DNA of 35,696 nt, taken from a virus. A program made the position numbers and the translations under genes. Below are positions 7,747 through 35,696 of this stretch, piece by piece (position 1 is the stretch's first letter; the number at the start of each line of letters is the position of its first letter). The stretch is from the IMG/VR virus record IMGVR_UViG_3300034065_000148; one strand, written 5' to 3'. The notes below the pieces were generated by a model. That model saw only the letters and a list, made by a program, of their open reading frames with translations, was not told the origin of the DNA and ran no database searches.

Positions 7747-8705
7747 TAAAACAAAGGCTTCTCTAGTTTAAATATATTCCCTCGGTCACGCATTCCTTGA
7801 ATATGTGCAAGTTGATCTTTGTAGCTTGCATCAAGCGTTTCAAATAGTTCTTTGGGGCACATCTTTGGCAACGTATCTTGATGGCAGCGCTTAAACTTCT
7901 TACCAGATCCACAGAAGCATGGGAGATTGCCGGGCCATTTGGCAAACGGGTGTGGTTCAAGTTCTTTCTTAGATAAGTCTGAGTGATCTTCGTTAACGTT
8001 TAGCTTATGATAAGACTGATCTAACGACTTAGTAGCGCTATACGTATGACGTCCAACATGATCAACAACACAATGTTTATTCATATAAAGCTTAAGACCT
8101 AGCTTACGAGCCTCATGGCAAAAGCCCCAATCTTCAGTGTTTAGATTTCCAGTCTCATCGATCTCAACGGGGAAGAACATTCGCTCATATTCAAGTTCTT
8201 GTTTCATTGGATCTCTGTGATGATATTTCTTCATATGCGGAGCCATCTCTTCAAACACATCAACGTCGATCTTTAGAAAGCCTGTTGGAATATTTAATAC
8301 CTCAAACTCACCAGATTCATCAGAGACTTTATCGAAATATTCAAAAGCAGAGTATTCCCCTACAGGAGTATGCTCATTAATTATTGGCCCATAATTAAGA
8401 CGAATCGGAAACACTTTGAGAGGATAAGTTCCTCCAACAATTCTTTTCTTAGATCTTAAGAGATGAAATATCTGCTTTGGCTCCCATTGAATATCAGCGT
8501 CTATAAACAAAAGCTTATCGTATTTACTTTTCATCGCAAACTCAGCACAACGATTTCTAGCCCACGACACAAGGTTCCTTGGCTCATTAAAGAGCGTCAC
8601 TTCAATTCCAGCTTCGTGAAAGTATGGAATAGATTTGATATACGAATGCAGATATTGAATTGGAACGTTACCGTCGAAAATAGGAGTCGCAATTAATAAT
8701 TTTAT
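7746..8705 (-). CDS. Glycosyltransferase (GT-A/GT2-like), probably initiated at a non-canonical ATA that overlaps the TerS stop
   Basis: The track ORF (GTG at 8600) lacks the conserved N-terminus. The in-frame upstream sequence IKLLIATPIFDGNVPIQYLHSYIKSIPYFHEAGIE aligns with MKICVAIPVYDGKIPV of the paralog. There is no ATG/GTG/TTG between the TAG at 8723-8721 and 8600. Also has the FIDADIQW acidic motif. Confidence 0.6.
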   Translation of the reverse strand: MKLLIATPIFDGNVPIQYLHSYIKSIPYFHEAGIEVTLFNEPRNLVSWARNRCAEFAMKSKYDKLLFIDADIQWEPKQIFHLLRSKKRIVGGTYPLKVFPIRLNYGPIINEHTPVGEYSAFEYFDKVSDESGEFEVLNIPTGFLKIDVDVFEEMAPHMKKYHHRDPMKQELEYERMFFPVEIDETGNLNTEDWGFCHEARKLGLKLYMNKHCVVDHVGRHTYSATKSLDQSYHKLNVNEDHSDLSKKELEPHPFAKWPGNLPCFCGSGKKFKRCHQDTLPKMCPKELFETLDASYKDQLAHIQGMRDRGNIFKLEKPLF

Positions 8706-9070
8706 TTTGCCCTTCGCTTTCTAGCGCTCGCTAAACGATCTGCGAGGCCATTCTTAAAATCATGTGTTAGTTCTTGTTTATCAGACTGCTTTAAATACTG
8801 CTTCCCAAGCCAAATAAGCATAACCCTATCACCCGACATCGCAAGTTCATATTGTTTGCGTCTTAAACTTACGCGCCCCTTTGAGCCCTTTTGGTCGGAA
8901 TACTCCGCATAAGTCAGCCCAAATTCAGATTTACAGCGCCTTGAAATGGTATCGTCTGATATTTTTAATATGTCGCAAACTTCAACTTTTGTGCATTGAA
9001 TGCCGAGCAAATCTTCGACTAACTCCCAATTAATTTTAATCTCTGGAGCTCCCATTTTCTTCTTAGCCAT
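8702..9070 (-). CDS. terS: Terminase small subunit / HTH DNA-binding packaging protein
   Basis: 122 aa. HTH-like CDILKISDDTISRRCK and the LIWLGKQYLKQSD motif common in small terminases. Located upstream of terL. Confidence 0.65.
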   Translation of the reverse strand: MAKKKMGAPEIKINWELVEDLLGIQCTKVEVCDILKISDDTISRRCKSEFGLTYAEYSDQKGSKGRVSLRRKQYELAMSGDRVMLIWLGKQYLKQSDKQELTHDFKNGLADRLASARKRRAK

Positions 9071-9527
9071 GTCTGGCCATTCTTCTATAAAAACTAGCGA
9101 GAGATTTGTATCGTTTTAAATCTTCTATCGTATAACCGCCATTGGCATATTTATCGGCTGCCCATTTACGAATAGGTTTCAATCTTTTCAATAGAAGTTT
9201 TGCTTGTTCTTTGACTGTATTTACGCCGGAATGATAATTAGTAAGCTTTTCTCTACCAATTTCTTTAATAAGCTCGCGTTCTATATCAAATGCGTCTGAT
9301 TCTAAAAGATCCTTGGCATAAACGAAGTATTTCACCTCGAAGCCGTCATTAATAATTTCTCTTATCCTTAGGGTCTTTCTCGGGTTATCAGAATTCCCTC
9401 TTTTGGCAGCGGGAACGTGTTGTTTCATTCTTTTCCCTTTGCCCTTGCCTACATAAAACACTTCCCCATTTCGAGGGTCTATCAACTGATAGACATAATA
9501 TTCTTTAGATTTTTCCTTCAGATCCAT
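9063..9527 (-). CDS. GIY-YIG domain nuclease-like protein
   Basis: YYVYQLIDPRNGEVFYVGKGKGKRMKQH matches the GIY-(x10)-YIG layout. It is the first gene of the late operon. Confidence 0.7.
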   Translation of the reverse strand: MDLKEKSKEYYVYQLIDPRNGEVFYVGKGKGKRMKQHVPAAKRGNSDNPRKTLRIREIINDGFEVKYFVYAKDLLESDAFDIERELIKEIGREKLTNYHSGVNTVKEQAKLLLKRLKPIRKWAADKYANGGYTIEDLKRYKSLASFYRRMARHG

Positions 9528-9630
9528 TTAAACGTGTCGTACACCTCCAAACTCAAAAAGCTCCAAAGGGTGTACTCCCCCCCTATAATTATTATATCGG
9601 CTAACTAGACTATTTATGTAAAGATTAATA
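9528..9630. promoter_or_regulatory. Divergent AT-rich control region between the late operon and the DUF5675-like gene
   Basis: Perfect TATAAT at 9584-9589 (+). TTTACA and GATATAAT boxes on the minus strand. 7-bp inverted repeat GTACACC (9539-9545) / GGTGTAC (9569-9575). Confidence 0.4.
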
Positions 9631-10047
9631 ATGATCTTGACCTTACAACGGACTGATTATTTGTCTGTAGGAATCTTCGGGACATTATCAAACGAAGACT
9701 CAACACTATTTCTCGCAACTGCCGAACATGCATACCCGGTCCAGCCAGCAGATGCGACATCTCTTTCTACTACATATTCGCCAAAGGTACCGAGCGGTCA
9801 ATATACCTGTATTTTAGGCCAGCATCAGCTATCCCGTGGAGTGCCGTTTGATGCCTATTGTTTGCAAGATGTCCCTGGTTGCACTGGGATATTGCTTCAC
9901 GTCGGAAATTACCCACAGACCGATAGTGAGGGATGCATCCTCTTAGGTCTTAGTAGAGTTGGGTTTATGATTCAGAGATCTCAAGACGCGTTTAAATTGT
10001 TTATGACAACTATGGCTGGGCAGCCATTTCAGTTAATAATTAGTTGA
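9631..10047 (+). CDS. DUF5675-like protein with a YkuD (L,D-transpeptidase)-like H-x-GN...S-x-GC-I-L motif
   Basis: The SGQYTC...VPGCTGILLHVGNYPQTDSEGCILLG pattern is characteristic of the phage/bacterial DUF5675 family. Confidence 0.65.
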   Translation: MILTLQRTDYLSVGIFGTLSNEDSTLFLATAEHAYPVQPADATSLSTTYSPKVPSGQYTCILGQHQLSRGVPFDAYCLQDVPGCTGILLHVGNYPQTDSEGCILLGLSRVGFMIQRSQDAFKLFMTTMAGQPFQLIIS

Positions 10048-10135
10048 CCGTGAGATAAACTGAGAAAAGAACGAGAATCATTCCTGCCGCCCCTATCACC
10101 CAAATGATGCCATCTGGATTAAGGGTATGGGCCAT
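10040..10135 (-). CDS. Possible 31-aa single-TM peptide (below the track cutoff)
   Basis: Manual translation MAHTLNPDGIIWVIGAAGMILVLFSVYLTVN. The ATG lies 2 nt after the stop of the 208-aa gene. Confidence 0.35.
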   Translation of the reverse strand: MAHTLNPDGIIWVIGAAGMILVLFSVYLTVN

Positions 10136-10137
10136 CT

Positions 10138-10764
10138 TTATCCGCCAGTTGTTGGCAGTTCTAGCCATACCAGGTTTGAAGCGCAAGAGACTGTGGTAGT
10201 TGAAACAGTGCCCATAACTCCTAAGAAGTTGCCAGGCTCGACTATCCAGGAACCATCAACAAGCTCTTCTGACTGACCGCCCATTAAAGAGGTGGCCGTA
10301 GATGGTTGAGGAGTAACGATTTGAGTGCTGTTAAATGGGACTAAAGAGTTTGTAAGGTTTCCGGCAAGCCCAGTTAGCGCCGTTCCAAAAGCAAAAGCCT
10401 TGGCAACGCTTGTCGGGATTGTGGCCGTTATAACGCGGCTTATGGGTGTTGACCCAGAGGTAATAGTATTTGAGGTTGCGTAAACCCAAACAAAAGAGCC
10501 TGGGCTTACACTTGAAGCAGCCGCTGTGGTGATTAAAACCGTCGCCCTTTGAATGACCATTATTCGGCCTGAATTACTTGGGTTATAGATCCCAATTATT
10601 GGCTGCGCGGTTGCGGAGAGTCCCGTTGCTGTGGCATTTGCGGCGACAAGGGCTGTGCTTACGCCGCCGAAACAAAATAGGTTACCAAGAGCGCATTGCT
10701 CGAAAAAACTGCCATTCCATTTTGTGTCGTAGTTTAATGTTATTGGATTTACATATGCTGCCAA
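10138..10764 (-). CDS. Hypothetical beta-rich S/T/A-rich protein (cargo next to the integrase)
   Basis: 208-aa ORF with a TTG start preceded by AGGGGG. No recognisable motif. Confidence 0.6.
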   Translation of the reverse strand: MAAYVNPITLNYDTKWNGSFFEQCALGNLFCFGGVSTALVAANATATGLSATAQPIIGIYNPSNSGRIMVIQRATVLITTAAASSVSPGSFVWVYATSNTITSGSTPISRVITATIPTSVAKAFAFGTALTGLAGNLTNSLVPFNSTQIVTPQPSTATSLMGGQSEELVDGSWIVEPGNFLGVMGTVSTTTVSCASNLVWLELPTTGG

Positions 10765-10899
10765 AGTGGGCCCCCTATTTGAATCTAACTTTGACTCAAT
10801 TTAAACCTATTAGTCAAATAGTTTGTGTTAGAGTTTCAAAAGATGTGGCGGCCGGGGTCTGGCACATTCGAGCTTATGGAAGAGCTCCTCCCCAAATTC

Positions 10900-10918
10900 A
10901 CACAGGTCGGTGACCTGC
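10900..10918 (+). promoter_or_regulatory. Dyad motif copy ACACAGGTCGGTGACCTGC
   Basis: Matches ACACWGG-N7-CCWG. Ends 1 nt before the integrase stop codon. Confidence 0.6.
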
Positions 10919-10919
10919 C

Positions 10920-11786
10920 TCACTTCTTAAGAATTGAATCAAGCTTAGCGGATATCGCGGTCACGGCTTCGAGCCTGGCAGAATCATCGAGCAAGGCGTA
11001 GCGGTCGGTCGTTTGCGTTGAATGATGGTTCAGGAGCTTTCCGATTACTTTCATATCAACTTTATTGCTCATGCCAACAGTTGCAAAAGTTCTGCGAAAA
11101 TCTCTCAGCCAAAGGTCCTCGCATCCAGCTTCTTTCCTTATTTTCCTAAACAGGTAACCAGGTGAAGGAATACCAAAAATAAGGCCATCCGATCGTTTCG
11201 GCAACTTATGGATCAATTCCATTATCTTTGGTGGGAGTATGACCGATTCAGGGTCTCCCGTAGCTTCTGTGCTTTTGCCATCAAAGACGAGTACTCCGAA
11301 GCCCGAAGACTCTGTAAACTCCGACCATCTAGAACGTTCAATAGAGCGAGGGCGAGCTCCCGTGAAGAGGAGTGTGTAGAGAAAAGTGATTTCAAGAGGT
11401 TGTGTTTTATACAACTTATCGAGGATTTCCCCGACTTTTTTGATTTCCGTTTCTGAGGCATAACGTCGCCTTTTTCTCTCAGTAAAGTGCTTAATGCCAA
11501 TGACCGGATTAAAGCCGCCGGCATTCCATTCTCGCTCGATACTGAATTTATAGAGTTTGGATATGATTTCGAGTAACCTATTGCCTGTGACTGGGGTTTT
11601 TGCAAATGATTTATGGAAGTCTCTAATTTGAACGCGAGTTACCGATAGGTAATCAATTGCTCCGAAAACTGGTTTTATATGATTTTTGTATTTGGCTCGA
11701 ACTTCTAGCGCGTGCCCTGATAGGTTGAATCTTGGACTATCCCAGTGATCTGCGAAGCATTTGGCAAAGAGCTCATCGATAGTCAC
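10920..11786 (-). CDS. int: Tyrosine recombinase / integrase (short, XerC/D-like size)
   Basis: Catalytic-region motifs TGARPRS, LRDFRRTFAT and LLNHHSTQTTDRYA (nucleophile Tyr). GTG start. Confidence 0.85.
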   Translation of the reverse strand: MTIDELFAKCFADHWDSPRFNLSGHALEVRAKYKNHIKPVFGAIDYLSVTRVQIRDFHKSFAKTPVTGNRLLEIISKLYKFSIEREWNAGGFNPVIGIKHFTERKRRRYASETEIKKVGEILDKLYKTQPLEITFLYTLLFTGARPRSIERSRWSEFTESSGFGVLVFDGKSTEATGDPESVILPPKIMELIHKLPKRSDGLIFGIPSPGYLFRKIRKEAGCEDLWLRDFRRTFATVGMSNKVDMKVIGKLLNHHSTQTTDRYALLDDSARLEAVTAISAKLDSILKK

Positions 11787-11841
11787 AAATTAAGGCTACG
11801 CTGTCATTTAAGGACAATCTAGACCAGTTATTGTAATTTTT

Positions 11842-11860
11842 ACACAGGTAGATCACCTGT
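11842..11860 (+). promoter_or_regulatory. Dyad motif copy ACACAGGTAGATCACCTGT (perfect ACAGGT-N5-ACCTGT palindrome)
   Basis: Lies in the int / secreted-peptide spacer. Ends 1 nt before the stop codon at 11862. Confidence 0.6.
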
Positions 11861-11861
11861 C

Positions 11862-12122
11862 TCAATTACTTAAACAACTATATCCACCAGATCCATTGCG
11901 CATACAACCGATATGGGTAGCGCTATTGTTGTATACAGGCATCGGTCTGGGCGGCACATATATTGGAGCCGATTGAATTGGGATGTAGGCGGGAGGATTG
12001 TATACCGGTACCGGTTGGTAAGTAGGAACCTGCATAGGAACAAACGTAGCTCTTGGCATTTGAACCCATTGAGCGTTAGCCGAAATTGGGATTAGAATTA
12101 GTAGAACGAGTAAATATTTCAT
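11862..12122 (-). CDS. Secreted proline-rich small protein with a C-terminal Cys-x9-Cys loop
   Basis: Signal peptide MKYLLVLLILIPISANA|Q. GAGGTG RBS before the ATG at 12122. The mature part is rich in P/V/Y. Confidence 0.65.
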   Translation of the reverse strand: MKYLLVLLILIPISANAQWVQMPRATFVPMQVPTYQPVPVYNPPAYIPIQSAPIYVPPRPMPVYNNSATHIGCMRNGSGGYSCLSN

Positions 12123-12162
12123 AGTCACCTCACTTCAAAATCAGTATAGCTCAAAAAATGGT

Positions 12163-12200: not shown

Positions 12201-12356
12201 ATGAGAAAAAACACCGCAGTGATAACCATAAGAATCCCAGAGGTTACCAAAGCTGAACTAGAGCTTTTAAAAAAGAACAAGTTTAACCCAGGCGAGATAT
12301 GTCGGGATCTTTTAATAAATGGAATTAAAGAGTTTTTAAAAAAGATTAAAAAATAA
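12201..12356 (+). CDS. Ribbon-helix-helix (Arc/CopG/MetJ-type) transcriptional regulator, 51 aa (below the track cutoff)
   Basis: Manual translation MRKNTAVITIRIPEVTKAELELLKKNKFNPGEICRDLLINGIKEFLKKIKK. The beta-strand plus two-helix pattern is typical of RHH proteins. Confidence 0.6.
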   Translation: MRKNTAVITIRIPEVTKAELELLKKNKFNPGEICRDLLINGIKEFLKKIKK

Positions 12357-16368: not shown

Positions 16369-17042
16369 GTGAATATCAATTCACAAATGCATGGTTTTCT
16401 CCACTAGTTCAAAGTGTGTGGAACATGATTGTTCCAATGGATGCACCGAAAAGATTCTTAGAGATTGGATCTTTTGAAGGTCGAAGTACGACATGGTTTA
16501 TAAACAAATTTGCAAGACAATGGGACATAGAAGTCCATTGCATTGATTCATGGGCAGGCTGTTCCGATAATGCATTAATGGAAGTTGATTTCAATGCATC
16601 GGAAAATAGATTTAAACACAATATGGAAATAGCTACAAAAAATAATCCATTTAAAACAGATCTTCATGTTCATAAAGGTACTTCAGAAAGTGAATTAATA
16701 AGGCTTTGCGCGAATGGATATCTTAATTATTTTGATGTCATTTACGTCGATGCAAATCACGAAGCTGCGGAGTGTTTGTCTGATGCCGTTCTCGCATGGA
16801 AGCTTTTAAAAATGCACGGGCTTATGATTTTTGATGATTACATTTTTGCAGTTCCCAATAGACCAAGGTGGGATGTTCCTAAAACTGCGATTGATGCTTT
16901 CTTAAATATTCACTGTAACGATGCGCATTTGATAAACGCTCCAAATCAGCAGGTATATGTGAAGAAAATTAAAGAGGGTGATTTGGTTTGGGCCCATAAG
17001 GCTCCAGTGTCTAAATCAGGTTCAAAACCTGAGGGAAAATGA
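16365..17042 (+). CDS. Class I SAM-dependent methyltransferase (O-methyltransferase/Methyltransf_24-like)
   Basis: FLEIGSFEGRST (motif I-like), IYVDANHE, and GLMIFDDY. Confidence 0.65.
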   Translation: MSEYQFTNAWFSPLVQSVWNMIVPMDAPKRFLEIGSFEGRSTTWFINKFARQWDIEVHCIDSWAGCSDNALMEVDFNASENRFKHNMEIATKNNPFKTDLHVHKGTSESELIRLCANGYLNYFDVIYVDANHEAAECLSDAVLAWKLLKMHGLMIFDDYIFAVPNRPRWDVPKTAIDAFLNIHCNDAHLINAPNQQVYVKKIKEGDLVWAHKAPVSKSGSKPEGK

Positions 17043-17206
17043 GAAACACATATCACCGCTGCGAACTAAAAGAGTTTTGGATTAAGAATGGTTTTCTGGA
17101 CCCAAAAGAAGGTGTGATTAGATTAACACCGCCGGATGAGCTTACAGAAGACTATTTCTGCCATGTAATTGTTGAGCCAGGTCCGGACCCAAAGGACGAG
17201 AAATGA
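17039..17206 (+). CDS. Hypothetical 55-aa protein (below the track cutoff)
   Basis: MRNTYHRCELKEFWIKNGFLDPKEGVIRLTPPDELTEDYFCHVIVEPGPDPKDEK. ATGA overlaps on both sides. Confidence 0.5.
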   Translation: MRNTYHRCELKEFWIKNGFLDPKEGVIRLTPPDELTEDYFCHVIVEPGPDPKDEK

Positions 17207-17532
17207 GCTTCTTTAAGCCTAGCGATTTTTATGACATGGAAATTGGCTCAGCATCCAAAAATCCTGGCCTAAATTTCTGTGATTTAGCGGCAATTAGGGC
17301 TAATGAAAAACTTATTGGAGCAGAAATGAACGGTAATGAAGAAAAACTCAGAGACAGATGTTCTGAATTAGAACAGGCCCTTTTTATGGTCCTTTGCTCA
17401 ACGTTAGTATCAACGGATGAACATGACTGGAGAAACTGCAAACAACCTAGTTGTGTAGTTGCTCGTAAAGCTTTAAAAATTGATACAGGTCCGGAACCAG
17501 TTGAAAAAGAAACTATAAAAGGAGAAAAATAA
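17203..17532 (+). CDS. Hypothetical protein
   Basis: 109-aa ORF, translationally coupled to its neighbours. Confidence 0.6.
   Translation: MSFFKPSDFYDMEIGSASKNPGLNFCDLAAIRANEKLIGAEMNGNEEKLRDRCSELEQALFMVLCSTLVSTDEHDWRNCKQPSCVVARKALKIDTGPEPVEKETIKGEK
17483..17501 (+). promoter_or_regulatory. Dyad motif copy ATACAGGTCCGGAACCAGT
   Basis: ACAGG-N7-CCAGT, ending 30 nt before the start codon at 17532. Confidence 0.5.
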
Positions 17533-17819
17533 TGGCAAAGAAGTACGTGATAGTAAGAACTTATTCGGCTGGAGTATTTGCCGGATATCTTAAAGCAAGA
17601 AAAGGGCAAGAAGTTACTTTAACTAATGCTAGGCGCCTTTGGTATTGGAAAGGTGCTGCTTCATTGAGTCAACTCGCGGTCGATGGAGTTTCTTCCCCTC
17701 AAGAATGTAAATTTCCCGCTGAAGTTTCTAATGTTGAATTATTACAAGCGATAGAGATTTTAGACGTTACTAAAAAGGCTCAAAAATCTATTGCATCGGT
17801 GGCGGTATGGAAGAGTTAA
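17532..17819 (+). CDS. Conserved-looking small phage protein of unknown function
   Basis: 95-aa ORF, VIVRTYSAGVFAGYL...NARRLWYWKGAASLSQLA. GGAG RBS. Confidence 0.65.
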   Translation: MAKKYVIVRTYSAGVFAGYLKARKGQEVTLTNARRLWYWKGAASLSQLAVDGVSSPQECKFPAEVSNVELLQAIEILDVTKKAQKSIASVAVWKS

Positions 17820-18073
17820 AAAATGACGGCTCCGGCTCCGGCTACGGCTACGGCGACGGCTACGGCTCCGGCTACGGCTCCGGCTCCGGCTACGGCTCCG
17901 GCTCCGGCTACGGCTACGGCTCCGGCTCCGGCTACGGCTCCGGCTACGGCGACGGCTACGGCTCCGGCTACGGCTACGGCTCCGGCTCCGGCTACGGCTA
18001 CGGCGACGGCTCCGGCTACGGCTCCGGCTACGGCTACGGCTCCGGCTCCGGCTACGGCTACGGCGACGGCTGA
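17807..18073 (+). CDS. Gly-Tyr-Ser-Asp dipeptide-repeat protein, MEELKND + (G-[YSD])40-G
   Basis: ATG preceded by GGTGG, overlapping the upstream gene by 13 nt. The stop falls exactly at the end of the repeat array. The choice of frame is uncertain. Confidence 0.5.
   Translation: MEELKNDGSGSGYGYGDGYGSGYGSGSGYGSGSGYGYGSGSGYGSGYGDGYGSGYGYGSGSGYGYGDGSGYGSGYGYGSGSGYGYGDG
17828..18070. repeat. 243-bp perfect hexanucleotide array built only from GGCTCC, GGCTAC and GGCGAC
   Basis: 40 hexamers plus a final GGC. About 70% or more GC inside an AT-rich genome. Long ORFs are present in two plus frames and one minus frame. Confidence 0.95.
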
Positions 18074-18118: not shown

Positions 18119-18847
18119 TTGCTCTATTTAGGGGATTGTTTGGAGGTTATGAAAAGCTTAGACGATAAGAGCATTGATATGGTTCTAACGGACCCTCCTT
18201 ACGGTACTACGGCTTGTAAGTGGGATACTGTTATCCCTTTTGAACCTATGTGGCGTGAGCTTAAAAGAATAACCAAAGGTCCTGTTCTTTTATTCGGAAG
18301 TGAACCGTTTTCTAGCTCGCTAAGAATAAGTTGTAGGGATTGGTATAGATATGACTGGGTTTGGAAAAAACAAAGAGCTGGTGGGTTTCCAATGGCCAAC
18401 AAGAGACCGCTTAAAAACATTGAACTAATCTCTGTTTTTTCTTTTAAGCAGTCTGCCTATTATCCTCAAGGCCTTGTCGATTGCCTTATAGATCAACGAA
18501 GAAAATCAAAATTATGCGCTTTCGTTAAATCGATAAAAAACCATGGTGGGATTCAAACTAAAACCAATTTTCCTAAAATGTTAATTGAAGGGTTTAAACA
18601 GGATTTTAAAACGGTTCATCCTACCCAAAAACCAGTCCCACTCCTCGAATACCTAATCAAGACCTATACCCTCGAAGGCGAAACTGTCCTAGATTTCACG
18701 ATGGGCAGCGGCTCGACTGGGGTTGCTTGTAAAAATTTAAACCGTAAATTTATAGGCATTGAAAAAGATCAAACCTATTTCGATATAGCGAAGGCTCGCA
18801 TTGCAGGTTCGAGACCTAGCGTTCAATTGGATATGATGAGTGTTTAA
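18119..18847 (+). CDS. DNA methyltransferase (beta-class N6-adenine/N4-cytosine, orphan)
   Basis: DMVLTDPPYG (motif IV) lies N-terminal to FTMGSGSTGVACKNLNRKFIGIEKD (motif I). TTG start. Confidence 0.85.
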   Translation: MLYLGDCLEVMKSLDDKSIDMVLTDPPYGTTACKWDTVIPFEPMWRELKRITKGPVLLFGSEPFSSSLRISCRDWYRYDWVWKKQRAGGFPMANKRPLKNIELISVFSFKQSAYYPQGLVDCLIDQRRKSKLCAFVKSIKNHGGIQTKTNFPKMLIEGFKQDFKTVHPTQKPVPLLEYLIKTYTLEGETVLDFTMGSGSTGVACKNLNRKFIGIEKDQTYFDIAKARIAGSRPSVQLDMMSV

Positions 18848-18865
18848 CACTGGTTATCCACCTGT
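18847..18865 (+). promoter_or_regulatory. Dyad motif copy ACACTGGTTATCCACCTGT
   Basis: Its first base is the last base of the methylase TAA. Ends 18 nt before the sigma gene start. Confidence 0.6.
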
Positions 18866-18883: not shown

Positions 18884-19507
18884 TTGGATGACAAAACAGC
18901 CGCGCACCTCCTTAAAAGACTTAAAGCAAGTGCTTCCATACTTGGGTTTGGATCTGAAGCAGAGGAAATTAGTCAGGCAGTTCTCACGCGAATGCTCGAA
19001 GGCAGGCATAAACATGCAACCTGTGAACAAGCTGTTATCGATTATTTACGGTCTAATTATGGTCGAAAGGGGGAACCTAGCTATGATCTTAGGCAGGCAT
19101 TCACTCTTAAACGACTCAGCTTCGAAGAATACTTTATTGAACATCCAGGACAGTTTGGAACTGAATCACCAAATAGATCGTATGCTTTTGATATACTCGG
19201 ATATTTTAGGGGTGTCGAAAGGGCGATGTTCCTCTTGAATCATTACTGGGGATTTAATGAAGTTGAGATCGGCAATCTCTTTGGAGTTAGTGAATCAAGG
19301 GTATCTCAGAGGCTCCAAAGCCTTCAGGGCCGCTTATCAGCGCGAATTAAGGCGGAAGCCTGGAATGAAAGAAAAAGAGAGGGCAAAATGGAAGGCATAT
19401 TATTACCGGAAGCAGAAAGCGAATCCGGATTGGAACAAGGAACGTTTGAAAGAATGGAGATTGGCCAATCCTGGCAAATGGAAAAACTTAATGAGGAGAG
19501 CTTCTGA
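18884..19507 (+). CDS. Sigma-70 family (ECF-like) sigma factor
   Basis: Region-2-like AEEISQAVLTRMLEG...VIDYLRS and region-4 HTH RAMFLLNHYWGFNEVEIGNLFGVSESRVSQRLQSLQGRL. TTG start. The last ~45 codons overlap the next gene. Confidence 0.6.
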   Translation: MDDKTAAHLLKRLKASASILGFGSEAEEISQAVLTRMLEGRHKHATCEQAVIDYLRSNYGRKGEPSYDLRQAFTLKRLSFEEYFIEHPGQFGTESPNRSYAFDILGYFRGVERAMFLLNHYWGFNEVEIGNLFGVSESRVSQRLQSLQGRLSARIKAEAWNERKREGKMEGILLPEAESESGLEQGTFERMEIGQSWQMEKLNEESF

Positions 19508-19815: not shown

Positions 19816-19833
19816 CACTGGTTCTCAGCCTGT
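19815..19833 (+). promoter_or_regulatory. Dyad motif copy ACACTGGTTCTCAGCCTGT
   Basis: Its first base is the last base of a TAA stop. Ends 12 nt before the ATG at 19846. Confidence 0.6.
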
Positions 19834-19956: not shown

Positions 19957-20168
19957 GTAAAGAAGATCTGGTTTCAATTCTAATCATAACGATGAATTGT
20001 TTTTGGCTCGGAACTTGGCTAGACCAAAAGTTCTTACTTAGGAAAAGGTTTCTTAACAAAAGCTATGAAGAAGCCACTAAAAAAGGAAGGTGTCCGATTT
20101 GTGAAAGGCCCATTAAAGTCATCAGTGACACTGGTTCGGAGCCTATCGAGGAGGGTAAATGTTCTTAA
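19953..20168 (+). CDS. Small membrane protein with a CPIC Zn-knuckle
   Basis: The ATG at 19953 follows a GGAGAAGG RBS (the track start at 19926 is less likely). TM segment LVSILIITMNCFWLGTWL. Confidence 0.55.
   Translation: MSKEDLVSILIITMNCFWLGTWLDQKFLLRKRFLNKSYEEATKKGRCPICERPIKVISDTGSEPIEEGKCS
20128..20146 (+). promoter_or_regulatory. Dyad motif copy ACACTGGTTCGGAGCCTAT
   Basis: Lies inside the 3' end of the preceding gene. Ends 12 nt before the ATG at 20159. Confidence 0.5.
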
Positions 20169-20259: not shown

Positions 20260-20484
20260 ATGACTAAACTAGAAGAAATTGAGGCCTATGCACATAGACG
20301 AGGCGGTTGCCCAGAATGTGATCGACGCATTGAAGATGATCAAGTGGACTGGCTCATCAATCGGGTCAAGGTCCTCACTGAGGCTTTGGAGAAAGCCGAT
20401 AGGCATATTTATTATCTTGGGGACAAGAACTATAAGACATTCGAGTTTGACGATACTGGTGAGAGACCTGGGGAGAAAGAATGA
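20260..20484 (+). CDS. Hypothetical protein with a CPEC motif
   Basis: 74-aa ORF. ATGA overlap with the next gene. Confidence 0.6.
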   Translation: MTKLEEIEAYAHRRGGCPECDRRIEDDQVDWLINRVKVLTEALEKADRHIYYLGDKNYKTFEFDDTGERPGEKE

Positions 20485-20666
20485 CTGCGGACGAATTCGT
20501 TGCCTGGTTAAAAGGATATTTTGAACTTGGTCAATCGCCTTGGGTCGATGATAGAAATAGACCGCTGGCAAAAAGTGCCAGACAAATGTTTTGGGGAGAA
20601 GACAAAATTAAACTCATTCAAGAAAAACTCTTCTCCGTTAAAAAGCCTAACGAGCCTGGTTTATAG
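20481..20666 (+). CDS. Hypothetical protein
   Basis: 61-aa ORF, translationally coupled. Confidence 0.55.
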   Translation: MTADEFVAWLKGYFELGQSPWVDDRNRPLAKSARQMFWGEDKIKLIQEKLFSVKKPNEPGL

Positions 20667-20671
20667 CCTGT
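20653..20671 (+). promoter_or_regulatory. Dyad motif copy AGCCTGGTTTATAGCCTGT
   Basis: Spans the TAG stop at 20664-20666. The GTG at 20670 lies inside its right half. Confidence 0.45.
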
Positions 20672-20849: not shown

Positions 20850-20867
20850 CACAGGCTTAGCGCCTGT
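20849..20867 (+). promoter_or_regulatory. Dyad motif copy ACACAGGCTTAGCGCCTGT
   Basis: Its first base is the last base of a TAA stop. Perfect ACAGG/CCTGT dyad. Confidence 0.6.
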
Positions 20868-20974: not shown

Positions 20975-21079
20975 ATGGAATATCCAGAAGAGCATCCAGA
21001 ATTAGCGTGTTTAATAGCCATCCCATTTCTACCATTTATGTGGATTTATTATGGTATCCGATATCTCATAAAAAGATGA
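20975..21079 (+). CDS. Possible 34-aa membrane peptide (below the track cutoff)
   Basis: MEYPEEHPELACLIAIPFLPFMWIYYGIRYLIKR. TAGGTGA RBS. ATGA overlap with the next gene. Confidence 0.4.
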   Translation: MEYPEEHPELACLIAIPFLPFMWIYYGIRYLIKR

Positions 21080-21333
21080 GCACAGAACAATCCGCTGATA
21101 TTTTAGCGGGTAATATCAGAGAATGCATTGGCCGTCATATGGAGAATTTTGACGCATACCAGTATAAGGAAATGATAGCCTCCGTGGTGATAGCACTTTA
21201 CGTGGAAGTTGCTAGGATTAAATCACTATCGGTTCAAACAGGAGAGGTTGACTCAAGTGATTTTGATAGGGTATTTATGAATGGTGTTAGGAATCACTTT
21301 GAAGACAAATACAGACTCGAATCAATCAACTGA
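21076..21333 (+). CDS. Hypothetical protein, last gene of the plus-strand operon
   Basis: The ATG at 21076 (MSTEQSADIL...) is preferred over the track GTG at 21007 because of its ATGA coupling. Confidence 0.55.
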   Translation: MSTEQSADILAGNIRECIGRHMENFDAYQYKEMIASVVIALYVEVARIKSLSVQTGEVDSSDFDRVFMNGVRNHFEDKYRLESIN

Positions 21334-21371
21334 TAAGCCAAAGACGATACTTCGCAAAGGTGGCGCTAAGC

Positions 21372-21719
21372 CTAATGGGAAGCCTCTCCAATAACAAATC
21401 CGCTGAGCAATGCCACGGCCCCCACAAGCACAACCATTGACCAATCCGTATTGGAAGACACAGCACTAAGTTGGCGATGACAATCTACATTTTCACGAAA
21501 TGAAACGGCAATAGATTCTGCTCCTTTTCTATCGGTACAGAAGAAATTGTCTGTCGATCCTACTGAAGCAACAGGAACGTCCTTAACAACCTCTGGAACA
21601 GGCTTAAGGTTATCCGGTATTGCTACTGGGACGGTTTCATTTTGATTTAATGTCTGCGAGTAACTCCGACTTGAGATCAGAATCAGGCTCAGACTTAACA
21701 GCATCAGCGATTTTAGCAT
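21372..21719 (-). CDS. Protein with an N-terminal signal peptide and a C-terminal TM segment (possible spanin-like lysis component)
   Basis: MLKSLMLLSLSLILISSRSYS|Q ... WSMVVLVGAVALLSGFVIG. Its 5' end overlaps the preceding gene by 83 nt, resembling an Rz/Rz1 overlapped arrangement. There is no lipobox Cys. Confidence 0.5.
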   Translation of the reverse strand: MLKSLMLLSLSLILISSRSYSQTLNQNETVPVAIPDNLKPVPEVVKDVPVASVGSTDNFFCTDRKGAESIAVSFRENVDCHRQLSAVSSNTDWSMVVLVGAVALLSGFVIGEASH

Positions 21720-35436: not shown

Positions 35437-35696
35437 TTATTCTCCTGTTAGCCAATTAAATCCTGGTTTTCTGGGTATTGTAGCCACGTCACATTGTAAT
35501 AATGTTGGCTTGTTATTCATTCTCTTAATATCTGCTTTTGAATCAGTTGCTTGAGCAACGATAAGTGGGCCAGGTTCTTTCCCGAATTCTGGAGCTAGCT
35601 CTATTGCTAGATTATATCTTAATGCTTTGTTATATCCCGGAGGCAAAGAGACAAGTGATGTAAGTAATGAAAAGTCTGATAACTGCTTCCAAGACC
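35437..35696 (-). CDS. 3' part of the gp4-like adaptor gene (same gene as 1-578; 35570-35696 duplicates 1-127)
   Basis: Track ORF 35437..35646 continues the frame of 1-578 through the terminal overlap: ...LPPGYNKALRYNLAIELAPEFGKEPGPLIVAQATDSK... Confidence 0.7.
   Translation of the reverse strand, partial: SWKQLSDFSLLTSLVSLPPGYNKALRYNLAIELAPEFGKEPGPLIVAQATDSKADIKRMNNKPTLLQCDVATIPRKPGFNWLTGE
35570..35696. repeat. Second copy of the 127-bp terminal overlap
   Basis: Identical to 1-127. Confidence 0.97.

Follow-up and report, generated by a model that had tools for sequence, protein, structure and literature searches.

Promoter-early stem-loops (PeSLs) of T4-type phages, the closest described system to the elements considered here, are conserved motifs of hyperplastic regions that mediate modular shuffling (PMC2839356, PMC4122927). 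Also to be compared are the stoperators of cluster A mycobacteriophages, an asymmetric 13-bp single consensus that occurs genome-wide and is bound by the monomeric immunity repressor (PMC9283540), and the targets of phage integrases, among which the T-stem sublocations of tRNA genes constitute a known class (PMC4383910). Here we describe a family of short dyad-like boxes at gene junctions of a 35,696-nucleotide stretch of viral DNA (IMG/VR record IMGVR_UViG_3300034065_000148; this whole stretch is called the window below), beginning with two near-identical copies that bracket its tyrosine integrase gene (int). A first-pass annotation of the window had proposed for these two copies a common repressor control of int and the middle genes, a role as arm sites of the excisionase (Xis) or integrase (Int) near the phage attachment site (attP), or a role as borders of an exchangeable integrase cassette. 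We show that the first copy (10900) closes the int operon as its terminal box and that the second (11842) separates int from a variable cassette upstream. With about even confidence, we consider both to be ordinary members of a clade-wide set of gene-junction boxes that border exchangeable accessory-gene cassettes.

Two boxes beside the integrase gene

The first copy, ACACAGGTCGGTGACCTGCCTCA, occupies positions 10900-10922, and the second, ACACAGGTAGATCACCTGTCTCA, positions 11842-11864, as had been claimed. Their common pattern, ACACAGGT-N5-ACCTG-Y-CTCA, was confirmed (0.02 chance matches are expected), as were the 6+6 palindrome of the second copy, its position 55-56 nt upstream of the first in-frame int start (GTG at 11786), and the lack of a U run after either copy; both copies also fail the terminator scan. 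Two details of the first-pass annotation had to be revised. The copies were placed 1 nt from the adjacent stop codons, whereas their terminal TCA is the reverse complement of a TGA stop itself, namely that of int in the first copy and that of an upstream open reading frame (ORF) of 88 aa in the second, both genes being on the minus strand (Table 1). The extra common CTCA is therefore the stop codon plus one base, and the coding-strand sequence of either copy is TGA-NN-CAGGT-N5-ACCTG-TGT. The copies were also said to be in plus orientation. Because the core is palindromic, orientation has to be read from the asymmetric flanks, and these fit the box family on the minus (gene) strand: with a weight matrix for box flanks trained on 80 boxes from nine relatives, the int copies score +5.8 and +10.7 on the minus strand versus -4.1 and +0.5 on the plus strand.

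Both copies belong to one family with the motif array at 17.0-20.9 kb, a connection that the first reading of the window had already made. They match the family core exactly, with the stop codon 2 nt before the core in each, and each folds as a hairpin with 7 bp in the stem and 3 nt in the loop (-10.9 and -8.3 kcal/mol, z ~ -2.5). Only the copy at the 5' side of int (11842) lies in a promoter-like spacer, that of a weak sigma-70-like pattern TTGAGA-N17/18-TAAAAAT, which also occurs in a relative (L224).

Box family in the window

The family core is C-W-G-G-T-N5-R-C-C-W-G. The strict pattern CWGG-N7-CCWG is matched 12 times in the window versus 0.93 matches expected; ten of these matches are located at gene ends (two beside int, eight at 17.0-20.9 kb), and the other two (24033 and 29867) are at chance level. 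A looser core has 10 matches in the window versus 0.62 expected. More boxes are obtained with a relaxed pattern, in which no more than one mismatch is tolerated over positions 1, 2, 14, and 15; degenerate members are located at 17178, 18081, 18804, and 20131. The family includes about 13 boxes.

The consensus of 27 sites (window and the relative L001) in gene orientation is formed by the upstream flank T(-5) R A n A, the core C W G G T N5 R C C W G, and the purine-rich downstream flank T T G A A A A. All boxes point in the direction of transcription and are found at gene 3' ends in two operons, namely the short leftward one with int and the rightward early one, of which they occupy the distal part. 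Two classes are distinguished by the relation of the box to the preceding gene. In the stop class, represented in the window by both int copies and the boxes at 18850, 19818, and 20852, the box lies 2 nt after a real stop codon T-R-A, which is part of the conserved flank. In the tail class, the upstream ORF is translated through the box in the frame (-1,1,2) and acquires a tail (T/S/P/A)-G-x-x-P-(V/E)-x-K..., which terminates at, or close to, the start codon of the following gene.

Occurrence and conservation of boxes in related phages

The window has an exact 127-bp direct terminal repeat (positions 1-127 and 35570-35696) and is therefore a complete circular genome of 35,569 bp. It is the genome of a P22-like temperate phage; P22-type portal and coat proteins are encoded in relatives, as are early genes including those for Cpn10, a class I methyltransferase, and RecT/ERF-type proteins. 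A BLASTN search with window positions 9-14 kb against 50,697 phage records gave no match and hence no close deposited relative. A search with the Int protein was more productive, yielding many homologues (60-88% identity) on contigs of 35-40 kb, and 13 relatives from this search (genomes or fragments, designated by L numbers) were fetched for comparison. No relative was found in two scans of genome contigs for a prophage or a bacterial attachment site (attB); of two metagenome scans, one was empty and the other gave only one short close relative. A viral scan with one exact box matched only the L001 contig, and a viral scan with a degenerate box pattern returned at least 119 loci, mostly chance matches, in none of which boxes were enriched.

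All 13 relatives, with Int proteins 63-100% identical, carry boxes at 8-80 times the expected density, and about 10-18 gene junctions per genome bear a box. The family was not found in loci with Int at most 41% identical, in 28 loci that were anchored on homologues of the DUF6948 protein (at most 81% identical to that of the window) and lack this int, or in 57 loci anchored on the RecT-like protein.

The box centres recur in one order in ten phages: TCTCTGA, TGATATA, CAATGAA, TTAATAY, TAATGTA, TCTTAAG, CTCACAG, TTC(A/C)AAA, TCCGGAA, CTTCCGA, TTTCCAA, TTATCCA, TTCTCAG, TTCGGAG, TCCTAAA, and TCTAGAA, followed by the terminal box. Each of these slots has its own 11-nt core (positions 3-13), with an identity of 0.93-1.00 (12 slots, 214 pairwise comparisons), a value inflated by the partial recognition of slots from their cores; the colinear order is independent evidence. 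Outside the core, identity is 0.87 at position 1, 0.67 at position 2, 0.70 at position 14, and 0.84 at position 15, and beyond -8 and +26 it is random (0.25-0.3); the conserved island is ~30 nt long. Some slots have an 8-nt centre where the orthologues have 7 nt, and the centres of the int-operon slots vary between phages. In a linkage test across the core, aimed at a recombination hot spot, positions 2 and 14, which are 12 nt apart, are unlinked, and flank associations are mixed.

The genes between the slots are unrelated: almost all inter-box ORFs are singletons in the all-against-all BLASTP comparison. Clusters are formed by the conserved early genes that precede the array, among them those for Cpn10, the methyltransferase, and ERF, and these genes carry no boxes. 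A single turnover event is seen in L228, which is 99.4-100% identical to the window and has an extra 185 nt between window positions 17007 and 17008. This insert (L228, about 647-831) begins with a box, CTGGTTAATACCCAG, followed by a ribosome-binding site and an ORF of 54 aa, and stops 9 nt before the 17017 box, the tail of which this ORF uses. A separate observation was made in L218, where two boxes with the TTCGGAG centre (4396 and 4606 in the sense orientation), both with an unusual right arm CCAA, flank one 43-aa cassette, as a single insertion or duplication at a box would produce.

The integrase operon across relatives

In the window and in six relatives (L210, L215, L219, L224, L225, and L226), int belongs to a short box-punctuated operon. 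In the window, L215, L210, L225, and L226, the end of this operon is marked by one box allele, TCAC-N(1-2)-GA. This allele abuts the int stop codon in the window, with no cassette in between, and in L215, where a CxxCxxCC cassette follows the box. One inserted gene precedes the terminal box in L210 (an HNH gene) and L225 (a small ORF), and in L226 it is separated from int by two ORFs, with another box directly at the int stop. L219 has no terminal box; it is missing as a clean gap, the downstream non-coding DNA being otherwise homologous. At the other end, the gene upstream of int encodes the 88-aa secreted peptide in the window and a DUF7336 protein in L215, and is one of several other small ORFs in L224 and L210. 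The position of the int 5' box is occupied by a full box in L224, a translated box of the tail class in L215, and a half relic in L210, with no counterpart box in L225; the int leader behind the 5' box is conserved. Seven relatives (L001, L211, L213, L217, L218, L219, and L227) have no box beside int. The idea of an exchangeable integrase cassette receives support with one change: it is the neighbors of int that vary, and there is no swapping of int alleles between the two dyads. The copies are thus junctions of the operon in which int happens to sit, and not a feature of int itself.

Several of the relatives carry a complete tRNA-Asn gene, in most cases next to int (Table 1); in five of the seven relatives without a box beside int (L001, L211, L217, L218, and L227), it lies on the downstream side of int. 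A complete gene lies within ~60 nt of the int stop codon in L001, L211, L217, and L218 and abuts or overlaps it in three of them; in L217, the gene that overlaps the int stop is followed by a tRNA-Trp gene. An HNH gene separates int from the tRNA-Asn gene in L227, and L213 has two tRNA-Asn genes upstream of int. The tRNA-Asn gene may be the attachment site of those relatives that carry one next to int. No tRNA gene was found by a tRNA scan of the window, and a tRNA fragment serving as attP in the window was rejected as a candidate, only 12-nt matches at chance level being obtained. The non-coding stretch downstream of the terminal box in the window is kept in L219, L210, L225, and L215, where the gene that it precedes encodes a secreted protein (151-208 aa), and is a candidate promoter or attP.

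Table 1. Coordinates of boxes and associated features (window positions unless a relative is named)
Feature	Position	Strand	Remarks
Tyrosine integrase (Int), 288 aa	10920..11786	-	phrog_1 4e-35; PF00589; catalytic domain only
88-aa signal-peptide ORF, variable cassette upstream of int	11862..12128	-	no family match
Terminal junction box of int operon	10900..10922	-	TGA(int stop)-GG-CAGGTCACCGACCTG-TGT; centre TCAC-N-GA; untranslated; possible 6-7 bp hairpin
Junction box between 88-aa secreted-peptide gene and int	11842..11864	-	TGA(stop)-GA-CAGGTGATCTACCTG-TGT, then AAAAATTACA
Conserved non-coding stretch downstream of terminal box	10765..10899	-	GGGAGG..CTTCC hairpin; inverted repeat TTTGACT-N15-AGTCAAA (10790-10818)
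Early-array box, slot TTCAAAA	17017..17031	+	translated tail SGSKPEGK*; L228 insertion 9 nt upstream
Degenerate box CAGGTCCGGACCCAA	17178..17192	+	
Early-array box, slot TCCGGAA	17486..17500	+	tail TGPEPVEK...
Early-array box, slot TTTCCAA	18081..18095	+	A at position 1
Box-like site CAGGTTCGAGACCTA	18804..18818	+	inside 3' end of DNA methylase gene
Early-array box, slot TTATCCA	18850..18864	+	after methylase TAA stop
Early-array box, slot TTCTCAG	19818..19832	+	after stop codon
Early-array box, slot TTCGGAG	20131..20145	+	tail TGSEP...
Early-array box, centre ATTGAAA	20244..20258	+	
Early-array box, centre TGAGAGA	20456..20470	+	
Early-array box, centre TTTATAG	20656..20670	+	
Terminal early-array box CAGGCTTAGCGCCTG	20852..20866	+	after stop codon; good hairpin
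Inverted exact copy of 20852 core, GGCTTAGCGCC	21362..21372	-	directly after stop of convergent gene 21372..21719 (-); arms degenerate
tRNA-Asn(GTT) genes	L001 4359-4432; L211 10871-10946; L217 10861-10936; L218 10928-11002; L227 11371-11447		
tRNA-Asn(GTT) genes, continued	L213 9165-9238 and 9645-9718; L215 9585-9658; L224 4385-4460		

Other features of the early and integrase regions

The core of the terminal early-array box and its inverted copy at 21362 bracket ~500 bp that hold a 108-aa ORF (21007-21333). The inverted copy could be due to chance (~0.2 expected over all cores) or could mark an invertible or exchangeable segment. It was the only match in a search of the genome for complements of box cores elsewhere, as would be expected of a guide-like partner.

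The 207-aa ORF at 18884-19507 has a weak match to sigma-70 region 4 (PF04545, E = 0.002, under the curated cut-off), and its slot holds other genes in relatives. The first rightward early gene (12201-12356) encodes a 51-aa product with an N-terminus, ITIRIPEVTKAELE, that reads as ribbon-helix-helix-like and has no family match; this product, with homologues that vary among the relatives, is possibly a Cro-like regulator. An overlapping ORF with Gly-rich repeats (GYGSG / GDGSG) on a tandem repeat of the GGCTCCGGCTACGGC type invariably comes after the DUF6948 gene (window 17532-18073; L063-L071, ~10000-10400). Because phages with and without boxes have this pair, it represents a mobile module of two genes that is conserved. 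Mosaicism extends to the DNA that separates int from the terminase genes, as seen from window positions 8702-10047 and the relatives, free-standing GIY-YIG or HNH endonuclease genes being present or absent beside a conserved DUF5675 gene; in L228, 262 nt are deleted within the gene for the GIY-YIG endonuclease (window 9226-9487).

Several readings of the boxes were tried and dropped. A promoter as a property of the family was suggested by the -35-like upstream flank (T-T-R-A-n-A) and rejected, since the -10 position is occupied by G-A-A-A-A-R and the starts are too close; this consensus directly follows the core, and the last -10 position is not T in 25 of the 27 boxes. Readings as sigma-54 promoters, boxA/boxB nut sites, IHF sites, or restriction sites fit the sequence poorly. 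Mimicry of the tRNA T arm as an RNA function was abandoned as well, only some centres resembling TTCRANY.

Alternative explanations of the boxes

It is rather unlikely that the boxes are RNA elements, that is, stop-proximal mRNA hairpins that serve as 3' stabilizers, weak attenuators or terminators, or processing sites and so set the expression of neighboring cistrons; at int, such hairpins would separate expression of the secreted-peptide gene from that of int and close the int message, like lambda tI/sib. The stems of both int copies would suit this role, as would the co-orientation of all boxes with transcription and the terminal int-operon slot, in which the stem CAGGTC/GACCTG is kept in five phages while the loop varies (ACC, ACCC, ACCA, ACG, ACA). 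Moreover, untranslated boxes fold significantly better than translated ones (mean -7.1 versus -4.3 kcal/mol, p = 4e-4), and positions 2 and 14 are complementary in 15/21 of the former and 38/91 of the latter. However, no covariation is observed at these positions, their pairing being 0.56 versus 0.59 in shuffles for all 103 sites and 0.60 versus 0.60 for the 45 unique centres; most boxes (91/112) are translated and have weak folds, and several window members fold no better than shuffled sequence (z >= -1). There is also no U run, terminator-like sites are not enriched, an Rfam scan of the window gave no match, and loops frozen within each slot are not expected of such elements. The hairpin is not a family-wide constraint; a local RNA role for the untranslated int copies is plausible. 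The 91 translated boxes among the 112 classified ones are all read in one frame and give similar tails within a slot, and the positions that vary, 2 and 14, fall on third bases of codons, which would agree with a DNA motif that is the mere by-product of an encoded hydrophobic-x-(T/S/P/A)-G-x-x-P-(V/E)-x-K tail (a docking or degradation tag required by many early proteins), the dyad arising from the codons ACW-GGT ... CCW-G. We find this very improbable: third codon positions within the core (5, 8, 11) are frozen, with an identity of 0.93-1.00 versus 0.42-0.72 just outside (17, 20, 23), the motif is kept no less well in untranslated boxes, both int copies among them, and some centres contain a stop codon (TTAATAC, tail 'TG*'). 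The peptide alone does not explain the constraint on the boxes. The dyad symmetry, with half-sites one helical turn apart, is also what an operator or roadblock would show, at which a dimeric phage DNA-binding protein silences or times the accessory genes and int. Many copies oriented with transcription at gene borders recall the stoperators (PMC9283540), the int 5' copy occupies its promoter-like spacer in common with L224, and the early operon opens with the putative ribbon-helix-helix gene described above. Such an operator is nevertheless decidedly unlikely, and the proposed common repressor control was not supported, given that boxes are absent from operon starts, from the conserved early genes, and from the whole late region, and that the centre is slot-specific and better conserved than the symmetric arms, the reverse of what is expected of an operator. 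In addition, start codons 0-50 nt downstream leave no room for a promoter, promoter-like sites show no enrichment, and the clade as a whole has no candidate binder in common, the first early gene itself being different among relatives.

Closeness to int, together with the conserved stretch of ~130 nt that follows the 10900 copy and could hold attP, speaks for the earlier suggestion that the copies are arm- or core-type Int/Xis sites defining an attachment region beside int. We regard this as scarcely credible, since a genome contains at least 13 copies, most of them 5-10 kb from int, the boxes occupy some 10-18 junctions, and their presence at int is not conserved, as the seven relatives without a box there demonstrate; the genome-contig scans likewise provided no prophage or attB. 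Only the catalytic domain is matched in Int itself, its PDB search gave only a weak match to XerA, and the arm-binding domain PF13356 is found in longer Int homologues (377-400 aa) and absent from this integrase clade. The same arm-less Int is the obvious candidate for the simple tyrosine recombinase of another alternative, in which it would bind the arms A-C-W-G-G / C-C-W-G-T, with the 7-nt centre as the overlap, so that only same-slot boxes of two genomes recombine and exchange is orderly, a natural analogue of recombinase-mediated cassette exchange. In full, this would mean ~20 ordered heterospecific sites with unique 7-nt overlaps and arms derived from, or mimicking, a tRNA T-arm target, and Int or another enzyme would swap cassettes slot by slot, the int-flanking copies included. 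Both the general scheme and this full version appear unlikely to us. The architecture of inverted arms around a 7-bp centre would be fitting, and conservation would agree with an overlap-identity rule, each slot having one fixed centre that other slots do not share, whereas both A and T are tolerated at arm positions 2 and 14; these two positions are unlinked though only 12 nt apart. Boxes strictly co-occur with this integrase clade, but common descent accounts for that equally well. The tRNA-Asn gene abuts int in relatives, T stems of tRNA genes being known integrase targets (PMC4383910), and its T arm reads CWGG-N7-CCWG, like a box, in three of them, whereas four of the seven T arms do not fit this pattern. 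The L218 pair of boxes with the same centre around a small cassette is also in line with such exchange. On the other hand, symmetry extends over only ~5 bp per arm, and known recombinase-binding elements are longer, about 7-13 bp; the island is asymmetric, reaching +25 on one side; the 8-nt centres of some slots face 7-nt centres in orthologues; centres of the int-operon slots differ between phages; no breakpoint falls in a centre; and the flank-linkage test is not clean.

Boxes as proposed borders of exchangeable cassettes

According to the reading that we prefer, the boxes would serve as joints when co-infecting relatives recombine, and accessory-gene cassettes would be replaced, inserted, or deleted there with expression left undisturbed. 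Each box would supply the stop codon or the tail for the preceding gene and sit just upstream of the ribosome-binding site of the next one. The untranslated boxes, including both int copies, would owe to their more perfect symmetry a 6-7 bp mRNA hairpin directly after the stop codon, which may buffer the 3' end of the upstream cistron. Exchange could proceed by short-homology annealing, the phages encoding ERF/RecT-type proteins, or by a site-specific enzyme that needs identical cores.

A number of points weigh against this reading. The perfect core of 11 nt with polymorphic flanks is too short for ordinary homologous recombination. The model by itself accounts neither for the CWGG/CCWG arms common to all slots nor for the centres that are frozen even at synonymous codon positions, and it gives no function to the slot-specific invariant core. 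The apparent invariance of the cores is partly due to the way in which slots were recognized, and selection for exchangeability may be second-order and weak. No recombination breakpoint could be mapped inside any box: homology spans the whole island in the L228 case and in both informative pairs that have a cassette in common on just one side (L210/L213 and window/L210), and therefore the joint itself is not resolved. Finally, the activity ascribed to the boxes is a predicted one.

Accessory regions of phages are the location of fast-turnover genes for anti-defence and host takeover, and this clade is an unusually clean case of their orderly turnover, with about 20 boxes in fixed order, private invariant cores, unrelated genes in between, and one strain pair that differs by one box-bounded cassette. 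If the boxes are recombination joints, a small temperate phage would maintain a plug-and-play gene rack in which translation signals are preserved. If exchange needs identical cores and a recombinase, the boxes would be a natural counterpart of engineered cassette exchange and a source of orthogonal sites. For genome annotation, the boxes account for many odd C-terminal tails and call for caution in describing int-side dyads as attachment or operator sites.

Comparison with known systems

Two known elements are set apart from the int copies by their components. An intrinsic terminator is a GC-rich hairpin with a U run, and the int copies have hairpins yet do not pass as terminators; arm sites of the lambda type need an N-terminal arm-binding domain in the integrase, and the 288-aa Int, with PF00589 only, has no such domain. 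Start-associated sequences of cluster K mycobacteriophages and the linkers at module borders of lambdoid phages resemble the boxes in being repeated short conserved sequences at gene borders near translation starts; unlike the boxes, they have a single consensus, have no slot-specific cores, and are not read as C-terminal tails. Integrons share with the boxes the promoter-less co-oriented small cassettes, borders formed by imperfect inverted repeats, and an element that encodes a tyrosine recombinase. However, an attC site is 57-141 bp long and moves with the upstream ORF in no fixed order, whereas a box has 15-30 nt and the order of boxes is fixed while the ORFs change, and Int here is an ordinary phage-type integrase, unlike that of the integron system.

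In dif, in the att cores of tRNA T arms, and in the lox and FRT variants that serve for cassette exchange, any centre sequence is allowed provided that the two partners have the same one. Sites of simple tyrosine recombinases are similar to the boxes in having inverted arms around a centre of 6-8 bp. The boxes differ in that their arms are symmetric over ~5 bp only and their centre length is 7-8. We know of no natural phage system of ordered heterospecific sites. Arms common to all slots combined with private invariant centres are the pattern that tyrosine-recombinase sites would show under an overlap-identity rule.

Stoperators and boxes are alike in their many copies near gene borders in one orientation, sometimes beside stop or start codons. 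Unlike stoperators, the boxes are dyad-like, are restricted to accessory regions (in the window, boxes above chance are located at 10.9-11.9 and 17.0-20.9 kb), have slot-specific centres, and come with no evident cognate repressor. With respect to PeSLs, those elements are intergenic and combine a consensus sigma-70 early promoter with a stable GC-rich terminator stem-loop, whereas the boxes have neither a promoter nor a conserved stem and are mostly translated as the tail of the upstream gene, with the next ribosome-binding site directly after. Slot-specific invariant centres in fixed order are a feature of the boxes that is not described for PeSLs. Nonetheless, both are short motifs that are concentrated in hypervariable accessory regions, flank orphan ORFs, and mark the points of insertion, deletion, or replacement of single genes.

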